From IMG/VR virus record IMGVR_UViG_2896601577_000010: DNA of 14,746 bases; one strand, written 5' to 3'. Under the pieces are notes generated by a model that was given only the letters and a program-made list of their open reading frames with translations, was not told the origin of the DNA and did not search any database. This stretch comes from a virus (Duplodnaviria > Heunggongvirae > Uroviricota > Caudoviricetes). Position 1 is the stretch's first letter. Every line of letters starts with the position of its first letter. The position numbers were made by a program, and so were the translations under genes. This document shows, one piece after another, positions 9,356 through 14,746 of this stretch.

Positions 9356-9721
9356 TTACAGTCCGATGATGTCGTCCTCTCTGCCACTACCTCCGGACAC
9401 CTCCGGCAGCGTCGGATCCGGCATATCACTCGCCGCTTCACGAGCAGACTTTTGTCGATGGCATTCGGTACAGAGCGTCCAGAGATTCGTCTCCTCATTA
9501 CCACCACCGAACTGAAGTGCAATTCGGTGATCGAGTTCACTGTCACAGAGGTCAACCACACGACCACAGAGACGGCACTGCCCGGCGTCCCTGAGCCAGA
9601 TATGACGCTTGAGGGAAACACGTGCACTGCCACTGACACGACGCTGTTCACCCTTCAGAATATTCACCCGTCGGGTATTCAGTGTTTTGATTCTGCTCTG
9701 GAGTGTACGAAGCTCAGCCAT
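9356..9721 (-). CDS. Phage-associated HNH endonuclease (packaging-linked)
   Basis: 121-aa ORF with the motif CRLCGRVVDLCDSELDHRIALQFGGGNEETNLWTLCTECHRQKS. ATG at 9721 is preceded by GGGGA. The HNH-TerS-TerL context is typical of cos-type HK97-like packaging modules. Confidence 0.8.
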   Translation of the reverse strand: MAELRTLQSRIKTLNTRRVNILKGEQRRVSGSARVSLKRHIWLRDAGQCRLCGRVVDLCDSELDHRIALQFGGGNEETNLWTLCTECHRQKSAREAASDMPDPTLPEVSGGSGREDDIIGL

Positions 9722-9762
9722 GTAAAATCCCCGTCATATGGCAATCAGTAAAGGAAATAAAT

Positions 9763-9963
9763 ATGTCATCGAAAAACCGTACCCGCAGAACCACAACCCG
9801 CAATATCCGTTTCCCCAATCACATGATTGAACAGATCAACATCGCCCTTGAGCATAAAGGGTCCGGTAACTTTTCAGCGTGGGTTATTGAAGCCTGCAGG
9901 AGAAGGCTGGCAACAGATGCAACGCATCTGCGCCCGGCCAGCATGACAAATAACGAGAAATGA
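9763..9963 (+). CDS. Small ribbon-helix-helix-like DNA-binding protein (66 aa), possibly YlcI/YnfO-like
   Basis: ATG at 9763 lies 7 nt after AAGGA. MSSKNRTRRTTTRNIRFPNHMIEQINIALEHKGSGNFSAWVIEACRRRL fits a basic tail, beta-strand and two helices. It is divergent from the HNH gene. The longer GTG-initiated ORF from 9703 is disfavoured. The family name is a memory-based guess. Confidence 0.45.
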   Translation: MSSKNRTRRTTTRNIRFPNHMIEQINIALEHKGSGNFSAWVIEACRRRLATDATHLRPASMTNNEK

Positions 9964-10094
9964 ACGTTCGGTTACAGGAGCAGGTACCCACTGTCCTCCA
10001 ACAATATTTCATCTTCATATCCGACGGAACAAGACTTACCCTGCCGGGATGTACAGAATAACAACAGAGTGATAATTAATTTCTGATGAAATAA

Positions 10095-10421
10095 TCAGGG
10101 TGCGGAAGGACTAAAGATAAACGTTTTCTTCACGCCTTTACACGGCCTGTCCTTCTCAAATCGCCATTTTGCCATCGCCTTTACAACCTGCTCATCAAAC
10201 AGATGGTGCGGCTCTGAACGAATAAACTCAATTCGGGTGACAGTACCATCAGCACCAATATCAAACCTCACATCAACCCGTCCCTTTATATAATTTGCCG
10301 CTGCATAGGCCGGATATTGTGGTAATGCCTTAACCAACTGTCGGGGCATATCTGTTTTATGTTGCGTACAGCCCATAACCAGAGAAGACAACAAAATAAT
10401 TAACGGAAGATTTCTTTTCAT
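10095..10421 (-). CDS. Lipoprotein with a TonB C-terminal-like domain (moron, low GC)
   Basis: MKRNLPLIILLSSLVMGC is a signal peptide with lipobox LVMG-C. The mature part (...PQYPAYAAANYIKGRVDVRFDIGADGTVTRIEFIRSEPHHLFDEQVVKAMAKWRFE...) resembles the TonB_C fold signature. ATG at 10421 is preceded by GGGGA. GC content is visibly lower than the flanking phage genes. Confidence 0.6.
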   Translation of the reverse strand: MKRNLPLIILLSSLVMGCTQHKTDMPRQLVKALPQYPAYAAANYIKGRVDVRFDIGADGTVTRIEFIRSEPHHLFDEQVVKAMAKWRFEKDRPCKGVKKTFIFSPSAP

Positions 10422-10453
10422 TTTCATTCCCCGCACAGATAAAAATAAGTCTT

Positions 10454-10484
10454 ATTCTAACAATGCCGCCCTGTCGGTCATCAA
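10454..10484 (-). promoter_or_regulatory. Candidate sigma70 promoter for the lipoprotein gene
   Basis: On the minus strand: TTGATG (-35, plus 10479-10484), 16-17 nt spacer, TGTTAGAAT (extended -10, TAGAAT at plus 10454-10459), about 30 nt upstream of the start codon. Confidence 0.3.
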
Positions 10485-10759
10485 TCCTCTGCTTAATGGC
10501 AACGACAATTATCCGACTTAAATCACAAATCAGACACATGACATAACAGGGCTTGCGAGGTAACACATCGTCCTGTTTCTTCCACCATCGCACCGGACTG
10601 GCGACTATGAGGGGACAACGCCGCGCTCCGTTAACGCGGTAAACCCCGGTGTGTATCGTTTTAGATTATCCCCGCACACTCGCGCAGAGGAGTCTCCCTG
10701 TCGGGCTGCGGTCTCTGTTAATGAGGGAATACAGCGACGATACGGCGCATCAGCAAAAC

Positions 10760-10789
10760 TTAGTTCAGGCACTGAGTGCGGATATAGTC
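10760..10789 (-). pseudogene. Displaced 3' end of Rz (last 8 codons plus stop), separated from the gene body by the IS insertion
   Basis: Joining 12054-12056 to 10786-10760 through one copy of the duplicated GTC restores ...LEGAQDYIRTQCLN-stop, which parallels the lambda Rz C-terminus ...LEGTQKYINEQCR. Confidence 0.6.
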
Positions 10790-10832
10790 TGAGGTGTACT
10801 GGCAATAGCGGACACTACCATTTGTTCTTTTT

Positions 10833-11651
10833 TTAAGCAGTCATCTGATGATATTTTTCCCTGAAGGCTGCCGGGGAGATATTCCCCAGACGAGAGTGAC
10901 GACGCTGACGATTGTAGAAAATCTCAATGTATTCCCGTATTACTGAGATGGCTTCATCCCGGTTATTAAAACGATAGTGGCTCAGGCTCTCATTTTTCAG
11001 CGTTCCCCAGAAGCTTTCCATCGGAGCGTTGTCGTAACACTGACCTTTACGCGACATTGATGTTTTCAGACCAGACTGCTCCTGTATGACCCGGTAATCG
11101 TATGCGCAGTACTGTGAACCTCGATCAGAGTGGTGGATTAGCCCGGCAGGTGGGCGCTGGCTCCTGAGCGCCATAAACAGGGCTTTACCTGTCAGCTCTT
11201 TTGTCATGCGCTCTCCCATGGCGTAGCCGACAATTTCGCACGTATAAACATCTTTGATGCCAGCGAGGTACAACCATCCCTCCTGTGTGGCAACATACGT
11301 CAGGTCCGCCACCCAGACCTGATTTGGTGCTGTAGGAGCGAACGTCTGGTTCAGCAGATTTGGCGCAACTGGCAGATTGTGGTTCGGGTTCGTAGTCGCT
11401 CTGAACTTGCGTTTCTGCTTACAGCGTAGCCTTAGCTCCTTACGAAGACGTGCCAGTCGGTCACGACCAACGATGATGCCATTCTCTGCCAGCTCCGTCT
11501 GGAGCCGCCGGGTTCCATATGTTTCGCGAGTGCGGATATGTGCCACCTTAATCTCCAGTTTTAGCCGCTCATCACTTTGTTTTCTGTCTGAGGGTTCATG
11601 CTGTACCCAGTTGTAATAACCGCTCCTGGATACACCAAATACCTGACACAT
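10833..11651 (-). CDS. IS3-family transposase OrfB (DDE catalytic domain)
   Basis: 272-aa ORF with ...VWVADLTYV...HHSDRGSQYCA...CYDNAPMESFWGTLKNE... (DDE/rve signature). The frame continues upstream to the slippery site, as expected for OrfAB. Confidence 0.85.
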   Translation of the reverse strand: MCQVFGVSRSGYYNWVQHEPSDRKQSDERLKLEIKVAHIRTRETYGTRRLQTELAENGIIVGRDRLARLRKELRLRCKQKRKFRATTNPNHNLPVAPNLLNQTFAPTAPNQVWVADLTYVATQEGWLYLAGIKDVYTCEIVGYAMGERMTKELTGKALFMALRSQRPPAGLIHHSDRGSQYCAYDYRVIQEQSGLKTSMSRKGQCYDNAPMESFWGTLKNESLSHYRFNNRDEAISVIREYIEIFYNRQRRHSRLGNISPAAFREKYHQMTA

Positions 11652-11686
11652 CGCTTCAATGGGAAATTGTTGTCGCCATTGTTCGA

Positions 11687-11989
11687 TTAACGCGTATTTT
11701 TCAGCGACTCCTGTGCAAAATACGCTGTTGCTTTTTTTAATATATCTCGCTCAAGGCGAGCTTCATTTAACGCCTTACGCAGTTGCAGAATTTCAGATTC
11801 CAGTTCAGCCACCGTGCGGGAACCAGGAGTACCGAGCCCTTTTCTGGCGGCGGTAACCCATTGTCCTAAAGTGCCTTCAGGAAGGGATAATCGGGAAGCG
11901 CCTTCACTGATCGAAAGTTGATTTTCAAGAACCGTTCTGACAGCTTCGGCTTTGAACTCTTTAGAGTAACGTTGGTTTTTTCTGCTCAT
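11687..11989 (-). CDS. IS3-family transposase OrfA (HTH DNA-binding subunit)
   Basis: 100-aa ORF MSRKNQRYSKEFKAEAVRTVLENQLSISEGASRLSLPEGTLGQWV... with a C-terminal leucine zipper-like region. ATG at 11989 is preceded by AAGGAG. Confidence 0.85.
   Translation of the reverse strand: MSRKNQRYSKEFKAEAVRTVLENQLSISEGASRLSLPEGTLGQWVTAARKGLGTPGSRTVAELESEILQLRKALNEARLERDILKKATAYFAQESLKNTR
11741..11750 (-). promoter_or_regulatory. Programmed -1 ribosomal frameshift site (A7G) for OrfAB transposase fusion
   Basis: Minus strand ATATTAAAAAAAGCA encodes ...ILKKA near the end of orfA; the orfB frame is open upstream to this point. Confidence 0.5.
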
Positions 11990-12050
11990 TATTAGCTCCT
12001 TCTGATGCCATTCTATTTCAGGAAGGAGTGTCCGTTAAACTCAGGCTACC

Positions 12051-12494
12051 TCAGTCCTGTGCCCCTTCCAGCTGCTTCTGCATTGTCATCAACCGTTCTC
12101 TGAGGATGAAATAATCCCGTTCAGCGGTGTCTGCCAGTCGGGGGCCGGTTGCATTATCCACGCCGGAGGTGCCGGTGGCTTCACGCACGGTACCGGAGCA
12201 GGTGGCGTTGATCCGCAGGCGCTTACGACCAGCGGCAACATCAGCACGCAGAGTTTCATTTTCAGCTCTCGCATCGGCTAATTCCCTCGAGTATCTGGCA
12301 TCAAGTGCAGCGACATCACGCTGGCGTATCTGCATATCAGTAATTGTCGCGTTCGCCAGCTCCAGCTCACTGGCTTTTTTATCGCGCTGCTCTTTGTAGA
12401 TGATGGCGTGAACACGGTAATGATTCAGCCCCAGACTAAGCGCACCACAGGCCACCAGCAGGGCAATGATGACCACGCACAAAACACGGTTCAT
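12051..12494 (-). pseudogene. Rz: Rz (i-spanin), C-terminus truncated by the IS insertion; stop codon supplied by the IS terminus
   Basis: MNRVLCVVIIALLVACGALSLGLNHYR...ERDYFILRERLMTMQKQLEGAQD has an N-terminal TM segment and coiled coil, very similar to lambdoid Rz. The reading frame ends in the TGA formed by the first three bases of the IS inverted repeat (12051-12053). Confidence 0.8.
12089..12274 (-). CDS. Rz1: Rz1 (o-spanin lipoprotein), embedded in the +1 frame of Rz
   Basis: MRELKMKLCVLMLPLVVSACGSTPPAPVPCVKPPAPPAWIMQPAPDWQTPLNGIISSSENG has lipobox LVVSAC and a proline-rich mature part, closely resembling lambda Rz1. Entirely nested within Rz. Confidence 0.75.
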   Translation of the reverse strand: MRELKMKLCVLMLPLVVSACGSTPPAPVPCVKPPAPPAWIMQPAPDWQTPLNGIISSSENG

Positions 12495-12495
12495 A

Positions 12496-12609
12496 TCACC
12501 ACCAACGGATTGCCCAGACCAGAACAGCAATTGCCACAATACGAATGGCAAAAGCTGCCGCTCTTGTTAAATCCAGACTGGCTGGCGTCTCCACTTCAAT
12601 GCCTTTCAT
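12496..12609 (-). CDS. Candidate small membrane protein (37 aa) translationally coupled to Rz
   Basis: ATG at 12609 lies 9 nt after GAGG. MKGIEVETPASLDLTRAAAFAIRIVAIAVLVWAIRWW has one predicted TM helix. Its TGA at 12496-12498 sits 1 nt before the Rz ATG (TGAtATG). It is not in the supplied ORF track (below the length cutoff). Confidence 0.3.
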   Translation of the reverse strand: MKGIEVETPASLDLTRAAAFAIRIVAIAVLVWAIRWW

Positions 12610-14113: not shown

Positions 14114-14415
14114 TGAAGTGGCACACTGAATTTGGCCACCTGAACAGAGGTGATATGCTCACCTCAGAACAACACAGGTGCTCCAATGAAAAAAAGAAAT
14201 TTTAGCGCAGAGTTTAAACGCGAATCCGCTCAACTGGTTGTTGACCAGAAATACACGGTGGCAGATGCCGCCAAAGCTATGGATGTTGGCCTTTCCACAA
14301 TGACAAGATGGGTCAAACAACTGCGTGATGAGCGTCAGGGCAAAACACCAAAAGCCTCTCCGATAACACCAGAACAAATCGAAATACGTAAGCTGAGGAA
14401 AAAGCTACAACGCAT
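14114..14415 (+). mobile_element. IS911-like (IS3 family) left-end fragment, interrupted by IS1
   Basis: Starts TGAAGTGGCACACTGAATTTGGCCACC (IS3-family TG terminus), with the orfA ATG 72 bp in. The element ends abruptly at the IS1 terminus at 14416. Confidence 0.7.
14186..14415 (+). pseudogene. IS911 OrfA (InsN-like) truncated after about 77 codons by the IS1 insertion
   Basis: [76 protein letters not shown] matches IS911 OrfA. The frame then reads 7 IS1-encoded codons (MVMLPTY) to a stop at 14435-14437. Confidence 0.8.
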
Positions 14416-14746
14416 GGTGATGCTGCCAACTTACTGATTTAGTGTATGATGGTGTTTTTGAGGTGCTCCAGTGGCTTCTGTTTCTATCAGCTGTCCCTCC
14501 TGTTCAGCTACTGACGGGGTGGTGCGTAACGGCAAAAGCACTGCCGGACATCAGCGCTATCTCTGCTCTCACTGCCGTAAAACATGGCAACTGCAGTTCA
14601 CTTACACCGCTTCTCAACCCGGTACGCACCAGAAAATTATTGATATGGCCATGAATGGCGTTGGATGCCGGGCAACTGCACGCATTATGGGCGTTAGCCT
14701 CAACACGATTTTACGTCACTTAAAAAACTCAGGCCGCAGTCGGTAA
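14416..14746 (+). mobile_element. IS1 (partial copy, truncated by the window edge), canonical isoform
   Basis: Begins with the IS1 inverted repeat GGTGATGCTGCCAACTTACTGATTTAGTGTATGATGGTG. insA starts 55 bp in. The A6C frameshift motif TTAAAAAAC is at 14720-14728. Confidence 0.9.
14471..14746 (+). CDS. insA: IS1 transposase InsA
   Basis: 91-aa [94 protein letters not shown]. Confidence 0.9.

Follow-up and report, generated by a model that had tools for sequence, protein, structure and literature searches.

Why should a prophage keep, between its lysis and packaging genes, a gene for a small lipoprotein built around one domain of TonB? The question is raised by a 14,746-nucleotide (nt) stretch of DNA from a member of the Caudoviricetes (IMG/VR virus record IMGVR_UViG_2896601577_000010), which in its whole length is called the window here. 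On its minus strand, at positions 10095..10421 (stop codon included), lies a gene for a protein of 108 amino acids (aa), the TonB_C lipoprotein. A first-pass annotation, made from the letters of the DNA alone, had marked positions 10095-10485, which are exactly this coding sequence plus a proposed promoter. It had suggested that a TonB mimic facing the periplasm competes for the TonB boxes of outer-membrane transporters and excludes TonB-dependent phages or colicins, much as the lipoproteins Cor and Llp block FhuA. The product is a TonB C-terminal domain on a predicted lipid anchor, with a tether of ~7-10 residues. We tentatively read it as a dominant-negative decoy, an uncoupled TonB domain that would damp TonB-dependent entry, and put the probability of this reading at about 40%. 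As a hypothesis, the earlier functional idea is reasonable and directly testable, in a reframed form.

A TonB C-terminal domain in a small lipoprotein

The reading frame was taken from the list of open reading frames (ORFs) with its translation, and RefSeq WP_000828072.1, a 'TonB family protein' encoded by 327 nt, has the same length and the same start codon. The product begins with MKRNLPL and ends with FIFSPSAP, in the layout MKRNLPLIILLSSLVMGC-TQHKTDM-PRQLVKALPQYPAY...FIFSPSAP. A Shine-Dalgarno-like GGGGAA (10427..10432, minus strand) stands ~6 nt 5' of the ATG at 10421. The signal peptide (10368..10421, minus strand), as read from the sequence, contains K2/R3, a hydrophobic core and the lipobox L14-V15-M16-G17-C18 (nt 10368-10382); the lipoprotein of ~108 aa with an LVMG-C lipobox that had been proposed for this locus is what the frame encodes. 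V15-M16-G17-C18 is a lipobox of the [LVI][ASTVI][GAS]C type, in which the Met at -2 is unusual, and the residue after Cys18 (+2) is Thr. The lipobox Cys is invariant across the alignment of the lipoprotein subfamily, and an Asp directly after it is found in no member of the family alignment. Predictions of outer-membrane sorting of lipoproteins are based on the Lol '+2 rule', under which the missing Asp points to the outer membrane; the protein is thus predicted to be lipidated and sorted there.

Residues 26-104 (10110..10346, minus strand) form the TonB C-terminal domain. They match Pfam TonB_C (PF03544) with 55.3 bits against a cut-off of 24.6 (E value 9e-15) and TIGR01352 with 55.1 bits against a cut-off of 27.1. 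In a phmmer comparison with the PDB sequences, 79 residues align without gaps to positions 153-231 of E. coli TonB (E value 1e-15, 36-41% identity), and the best matches are enterobacterial TonB C-terminal domains, including chains 1u07, 2gsk_B and 2grx_C. An AlphaFold (AF2) model built from a 23-sequence alignment has a mean predicted local distance difference test (pLDDT) score of 86.5, with values above 96 across the domain; the depth of the input mattered, as nine close homologues gave only 63.8. The elements of the model, helices at residues 38-42 and 76-83 and strands at 47-55, 61-70 and 94-103, are those of the TonB C-terminal fold, and the third strand corresponds to about residues 221-230 of TonB. 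Foldseek places the same E. coli domains (1u07, 2gsk_B, 2grx_C) at the top, with target-normalised template modelling (TM) scores of 0.88-0.92 and root-mean-square deviations (rmsd) of 1.1-1.4 Å; the rmsd to the TonB chains of the BtuB:TonB and FhuA:TonB complexes (2gsk_B and 2grx_C) is 1.1-1.2 Å, and the eleven best matches are all TonB or FusB C-terminal domains. The Pfam comparison, structure prediction and Foldseek search are the checks that the first-pass annotation had named for its impression that the mature part looks like TonB_C, and each of them points that way. In co-crystals, the Ton box binds to the three-stranded sheet of TonB 158-235 (PMC2533080), and the strand with which it pairs there has its counterpart in residues 94-103 of the model. 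The fold appears to be rare among catalogued viral proteins, because Foldseek finds next to nothing in the viral library BFVD: no match has an E value below 0.001, and the best is a 256-aa protein at E 0.08.

The homologous domain of E. coli and Salmonella TonB (1u07, 1xx3, 2gsk chain B, 2grx chain C, 8rd6) shares with the window protein the YP motif, the residues W213/W86 and F230/F103, and the strand-strand-helix-strand core. In the YP motif, Y36 (Y163 of E. coli TonB) is invariant among the 23 aligned sequences and P37 (P164) is at least 90% conserved. The differences include both ends and two motifs. A lipoprotein signal peptide, residues 1-18, takes the place of the transmembrane anchor and proline-rich spacer of TonB, and only seven residues (T19-M25) separate Cys18 from the aligned domain. 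The window protein stops four residues past the third strand, and the motifs SEPxHLFD and KWRFE are specific to the lipoprotein family. In keeping with this, the NCBIfam equivalog models for TonB give 49-74 bits against cut-offs of 265-448, with only their C-terminal ~80 positions matched. Lacking both the anchor and the spacer, the TonB_C lipoprotein is not an energy transducer and cannot couple to ExbB/ExbD.

A protein that covers about the last third of TonB, and that databases label 'partial' or 'TonB fragment', could also be the dead remnant of a captured tonB, with no function. However, this remnant would have acquired a signal peptide of the lipoprotein type, the Cys of which is invariant, and its gene is under purifying selection: the ratio of nonsynonymous to synonymous change (dN/dS) is 0.11 for the copies in the window and in phage 21, which represent the two E. 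coli subtypes, and 0.20 for a pair of prophage copies, and synonymous sites are close to saturated. The putative promoter is conserved as well, the family reaches at least eight genera, and the gene is intact within a decaying prophage. We reject the dead-fragment explanation as scarcely credible.

A second explanation comes from the databases of phage proteins. The best match among the PHROG families, full length and with an E value of 1e-42, is phrog_1267, an 'Rz-like spanin' of the lysis category, and a small lipoprotein encoded beside lysis genes might indeed be a lysis accessory or an outer-membrane, spanin-like protein. But the window already contains a complete Rz/Rz1 pair (12051-12551 and 12089-12274), phage 21 has annotated i- and o-spanins besides its TonB_C gene, and the product has the globular TonB_C fold rather than the short, proline-rich form of Rz1. 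Other members of the family are encoded on chromosomes, outside any phage. As the members of phrog_1267 are TonB_C lipoproteins, the label is probably mistaken and was most likely transferred on the basis of gene neighbourhood; the spanin-like explanation is also rejected, being very improbable.

Promoter, Fur boxes and the wider family

The first-pass annotation had given the gene a plausible σ70 promoter of its own, with TTGATG as the -35 element and a 17-nt spacer. A promoter scan finds an extended -10 element, TGT-TAGAAT (TGTTAGAAT), at 10454..10462 on the minus strand, and weak -35 candidates within 10476..10484, namely TTGATG (10479-10484), which has a 19-nt spacer, and ATGACC, which has a 16-nt spacer. 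Thus TTGATG is 19 nt from the -10 hexamer and 16 nt from the TGT, the -35 match is poor, and neither candidate is conserved in relatives. Taken alone, the scan does not rise above chance, with two promoter-like sites in 1.2 kb against 1.7 expected from shuffled sequences. Conservation argues for the -10 element: in an alignment of the 90 nt upstream of family members, which includes relatives down to ~43% protein identity, TGn-TAGnAT is equally distant from the start codon in the window, phage 21, Citrobacter, P0034-type, Klebsiella and Raoultella copies, and in most of these a putative Fur operator comes directly after it. What is conserved of the proposed promoter is thus the extended -10 element, and given the poor -35 the window promoter is best described as a candidate of the extended -10 type.

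A degenerate element resembling a Fur box, AATAAGACTTATTTTTATC, overlaps this -10 element and the expected start of the transcript (10438..10456, minus strand). It matches GATAATGATAATCATTATC at 13 of 19 positions, and the chance of a match this good within a 60-nt stretch is ~0.025. The element occupies the same position as much better Fur boxes in relatives, which match at 15-17 of 19 positions. Such boxes (at least 15/19) are present at the promoter in 8 of 11 representative lineages, in chromosomal and prophage copies alike, against a background in these loci of 4.5e-5 per position or ~0.003 per 60-nt stretch. The match to GATAATGATAATCATTATC is 17/19 in a Sodalis prophage and on the Serratia chromosome, 16/19 in a Citrobacter prophage and in the chromosomal copies of Klebsiella and Erwinia typographi, and 15/19 in each of the Raoultella, Gibbsiella, K. 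pneumoniae prophage and P0034-type prophage copies. The boxes lie ~22-64 nt 5' of the start codons (in our comparison loci, at L088 5919-5937, L104 5937-5955, L091 5962-5980, L092 1609-1627, L111 4904-4922 and L107 322-340), and in most loci the box is the single best match within 6-12 kb. A perfect 7-1-7 motif, TGATAATtATTATCA, is found in the Klebsiella chromosomal and P0034-type prophage copies, and the Raoultella copies are one base off. Since these lineages share ancestry, the recurrence of the box means conservation rather than independent origin, and a putative operator that is conserved at 35-45% protein identity argues for function. The copy in phage 21 has no Fur box. The window element looks like a decayed Fur operator, and we infer from these matches that iron repression was the original state of the family and that it has been lost, partly or wholly, from the phage copies in E. 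coli.

The gene is already known and widely annotated, and the protein presents a known domain in a variant architecture. Besides the RefSeq name, homologues are called 'protein TonB' (phage Lys8385Vzw), 'TonB fragment', 'putative tonB-like membrane from phage origin' (JLK-2012), 'TonB C-terminal domain protein' (phage 21) and 'partial tonB-like membrane protein encoded within prophage CP-933N'. With the gene as query, blastn detects a version in 1,616 of 5,426 complete E. coli genomes (~30%): about 414 carry the window subtype (at least 95% nt identity) and about 1,201 the subtype of phage 21 (71% protein identity). Several Stx1a-converting phages, as well as phage 21, carry a TonB_C lipoprotein gene, and the copies returned by a scan of viral sequences are all from E. 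coli and at least 97% identical. HMMER and profile searches extend the family to lipoproteins of 107-133 aa with the same architecture in Klebsiella, Raoultella, Citrobacter, Serratia, Erwinia, Gibbsiella and Sodalis. Prophage copies follow the spanin genes and precede the terminase genes in K. pneumoniae, Citrobacter, a P27-like prophage, Sodalis and Klebsiella phage ST13-OXA48phi12.4, and one copy in K. aerogenes is located in an island beside an integrase.

Other copies are chromosomal and have no phage genes near them. In Serratia the gene lies between the minCDE region and dsbB-nhaB-fadR, a setting that is identical in all three loci compared; in Raoultella and Klebsiella it adjoins lacZ-lacI, in Gibbsiella it adjoins ahpCF, and the Erwinia copy is also chromosomal. 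These members mean that the family is not specific to phages. The first-pass annotation had named, as an outcome that would speak against it, a widespread housekeeping lipoprotein unrelated to prophages, and the chromosomal members of Serratia, Klebsiella/Raoultella, Gibbsiella and Erwinia go part of the way towards that outcome. The phage gene belongs to a bacterial lipoprotein family with predicted regulation by Fur, and is not an invention of phages. Directly 3' of the chromosomal Raoultella gene is a gene for an inner-membrane protein of the YagU/DUF1440 type (L083 6738-7301). A DUF1440 gene is also part of the cargo of a Klebsiella phage that carries a TonB_C lipoprotein (L100 1277-1903), which may be coincidence or a functional link.

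The main rival to the decoy reading follows from these Fur boxes. The lipoprotein may be a helper or regulator of TonB-dependent uptake, a factor of the iron-starvation response that offers a docking site at the outer membrane to the C-terminal domain of TonB, to ExbD or to peptidoglycan, or that orders the Ton boxes of unliganded transporters; phages would then carry the gene for better iron nutrition of the lysogen. Strong Fur boxes at both chromosomal copies (Serratia, Klebsiella, Erwinia typographi, Raoultella and Gibbsiella) and prophage copies favor such a role, as do the conserved chromosomal position in Serratia, between the minCDE region and dsbB, and the combination of the TonB_C gene with sitABCD in phage 21. 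However, to our knowledge no TonB system requires a component of this kind. E. coli genomes of the K-12 type function without the gene, and the 30% of E. coli that have it have it always as prophage cargo. With a decayed operator in the window and none in phage 21, the E. coli phage gene would be uncoupled from iron status. In addition, an uncoupled TonB domain in the periplasm is inhibitory, according to a preprint on engineered TonB fragments (bioRxiv 10.1101/2020.01.05.895219). On balance we consider the helper explanation unlikely.

Possible interference with TonB-dependent entry

How might the decoy that we favor work? A small lipoprotein, probably anchored in the outer membrane, would display a folded TonB C-terminal domain on a short tether, at the height where Ton boxes emerge. 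Without the anchor and spacer of TonB, this domain could not be energised by ExbB/ExbD. Transcription would start at the extended -10 element of the gene itself; in most relatives, a Fur operator over that element would switch the gene on in iron starvation, and in the E. coli lineage of the window the operator would have decayed. As IS600 lies upstream, the own promoter is likely to be the sole source of transcription in the window. By β-strand pairing, the uncoupled domain would then take up Ton boxes, either those of transporters in the outer membrane or those of TonB-dependent colicins on their way in; alternatively, it might pair with the C-terminal domain of TonB itself. The outcome would be less TonB-dependent entry of phages, group B colicins and microcins, at a cost to siderophore and B12 uptake. 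Binding to the Ton box or to TonB, expression in the lysogen and the exclusion phenotype are all what we infer for this protein.

Periplasmic TonB fragments comprising residues 33-239, 103-239 or 122-239 inhibit the TonB system (Howard et al. 2001, as cited in the later preprint bioRxiv 10.1101/2020.01.05.895219). Like the window protein, these fragments place a TonB C-terminal domain in the periplasm without energy coupling, and in the same preprint they are reported to abolish ferrichrome transport and to make growth iron-deficient. They are artificial, soluble, overexpressed and longer, whereas the window protein is natural and predicted to be lipid-anchored, and consists of a ~83-residue domain with its own putative promoter. 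A second precedent is Llp of phage T5: situated in the inner leaflet of the outer membrane, this lipoprotein disables FhuA from the periplasmic side (bioRxiv 10.64898/2026.03.26.714494). Given these experimental precedents, the idea of exclusion is plausible. Llp and Cor (of φ80, N15 and lambdoid phages) are, as is predicted for the window protein, small outer-membrane lipoproteins of phages, and they exclude phages by acting on FhuA from the periplasm. However, they are unrelated to it in sequence and fold; Pfam, PHROG and PDB fold searches with the window protein gave only TonB-type matches and phrog_1267. Llp acts allosterically on one receptor, the plug of which is remodelled, whereas a TonB mimic would use the shared Ton box and possibly many receptors.

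That the gene is functional is supported by its low dN/dS ratios, by its intact state in a decaying prophage and by its presence in 1,616 of the 5,426 E. coli genomes. The Fur boxes of relatives also suggest a link to iron and TonB physiology. The earlier statement that no phage-encoded exclusion factor mimicking the TonB C-terminal domain had been described agrees with full-text literature searches, of incomplete coverage, in which no published function for a phage or lipoprotein TonB_C protein was found; a text search of the genome announcement of phage 21 (PMC9119081) gave no occurrence of 'TonB'.

Several observations weigh against the decoy. The Fur boxes of most members suggest that the family first served its hosts in iron starvation, and chromosomal relatives that should be derepressed under that condition would be made when uptake matters most, when a benefit would be expected, which is a poor fit for an inhibitor. 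The tether is short, and the published inhibition was obtained with overexpressed, soluble fragments longer than the window domain. The promoter in the window is a candidate identified by its match to the consensus. No terminator-like site, such as a moron would have for itself, was found in a scan of positions 9700-10900, and the 150 nt downstream fold no better than shuffled sequences (z = 0.44). Among the defence models of PADLOC there was no significant match, the sole match being a cyclase model at E 0.04. Nor is self-exclusion a likely purpose, at least in phage 21: its central tail fibre matches lambda J (BLASTp e-value 0, by the annotation of the record), and lambda J binds LamB, which is not a TonB-dependent receptor. 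Finally, Q160, R166 and R158 of TonB, which we take to be contact side chains, are not kept, being replaced by L33 (Tyr in the phage 21 type), Y39 and K31, respectively. TonB Q160L is a functional suppressor allele (PMC2533080). A cor gene was looked for in the tail region of phage 21, and none was found.

The location of the gene raises one more explanation, that it encodes a factor of the lytic cycle. As a late read-through product, the lipoprotein would inactivate a TonB-dependent receptor in the manner of T5 Llp, so that progeny virions are not wasted on the debris of lysed cells and superinfection during the latent period is avoided. Indeed, the gene lies just 3' of the spanin genes and on the late-gene strand in phage 21, in JLK-2012, in the intact E. 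coli prophage and in prophages of Klebsiella, Citrobacter and Sodalis, and Llp acts at the same face of the membrane (bioRxiv 10.64898/2026.03.26.714494). But the gene has a conserved promoter element of its own, with a Fur operator in relatives, and chromosomal members exist without any phage context. In the window, IS600 blocks late transcription and the gene is still intact; the lambda J-like fibre of phage 21 again suggests LamB, a receptor that does not depend on TonB. A lytic-cycle function is therefore improbable.

Many phages, colicins, microcins and conjugates of siderophores with antibiotics enter cells through TonB-dependent transporters. Because a natural decoy would act on the Ton box that these transporters have in common, sensitivity to the whole class of agents could shift at once; if the decoy reading is true, this class-wide effect sets it apart from Cor and Llp, each of which blocks one receptor. 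With the gene present in ~30% of complete E. coli genomes and in Stx1a-converting phages, any effect would be relevant to phage therapy, to colicin ecology and to the iron nutrition of pathogens. With control by Fur as predicted in Serratia, Klebsiella, Erwinia and others, the response to iron starvation would gain a so far unstudied member. A wider proposal, which we regard as doubtful, joins these strands: an unrecognised, Fur-controlled lipoprotein that bears the TonB C-terminal domain at the outer membrane would modulate TonB across enterobacteria, and phages would have captured it repeatedly, freed it from iron control in E. coli and turned it to a broad, Ton box-based exclusion of TonB-dependent phages, group B colicins and microcins.

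The lysis-packaging interval and the state of the prophage

Along the minus strand, the order of genes is lysozyme (13363-12830), Rz (12551-12051) with Rz1 (12274-12089), IS600, the TonB_C gene, a convergent gene of the YlcI/YnfO family, HNH, TerS, TerL and portal. The convergent neighbour (ynfO; 9763..9963, plus strand) was identified from its translation and from the annotation of a near-identical locus. IS600, an insertion sequence (IS) of the IS3 family (10790..12052, minus strand), is annotated as 'IS3-like element IS600 family transposase' in matching genomes. Its ends were placed by comparison with an intact, near-identical prophage (L001; 95.8% identity over 6.8 kb), four bases of which (7087-7090) align at both breakpoints. 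The insertion point is 26-29 nt 5' of the Rz stop codon, and the last Rz codons have been replaced. The position between lysis and packaging genes that the first-pass annotation had given is correct for the interval as a whole, but in the window IS600 intervenes between Rz and the TonB_C gene, and parts the latter from the lysis genes and from transcription of the late operon.

The same annotation had placed the gene where lambda carries bor. Lambda Bor/Iss is likewise a lipoprotein encoded by a cargo gene in the interval between the lysis genes and cos of lambdoid phages, with a promoter of its own as is proposed for the TonB_C gene, although it has no similarity to the window protein; Bor has been associated with serum resistance rather than with TonB. 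The slot between lysis and packaging is indeed shared, but the TonB_C gene is adjacent to the place of bor and does not replace it, because phage 21 has the two side by side, on opposite strands and ~480 bp apart. In phage 21, the region of the tail fibre also contains the iron/manganese transporter sitABCD (sitB, sitC and sitD at OL657228.1 21967-24502; L115 8968-11001), and two cargo loci of this phage, the sit genes and the TonB_C lipoprotein gene, are therefore iron-related.

In composition and patchy presence the gene behaves as a moron. Its GC content is 44.0% (41% at third codon positions), against 54.3% for the whole window and 54-59% for the flanking phage genes (HNH 55%, TerS 54%, TerL 58%, Rz 56% and lysozyme 56%), which confirms the low GC noted at first reading. 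In related phages the gene is absent or the slot has another occupant, for example KilA-N in JLK-2012 and bor in phage 21.

The TonB_C gene is intact in a prophage with a frameshifted TerL gene and two IS insertions. Two single-base gaps relative to the intact prophage leave TerL (6848-8507) in three separate frames. Unless these gaps are sequencing errors, they mark a defective, decaying prophage together with IS600 and an IS1.

Between the place of the Rz stop codon in the intact prophage and the start of the TonB_C gene are ~340 bp (10500-10790 in the window) that are at least 96% conserved among E. coli prophages. No convincing ORF and no Rfam match is found there, and a scan of positions 9600-10900 with E values up to 1 gives no RNA family; JLK-2012 has an annotated 69-aa hypothetical protein in this place. 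At the far end of the window (14150-14746) is the start of orfA of an IS3-family transposase, behind which there appears to lie an IS1 that probably interrupts it and that runs past the window end. The clustering of IS elements suggests an IS-rich host, for example Shigella or a related lineage of E. coli.

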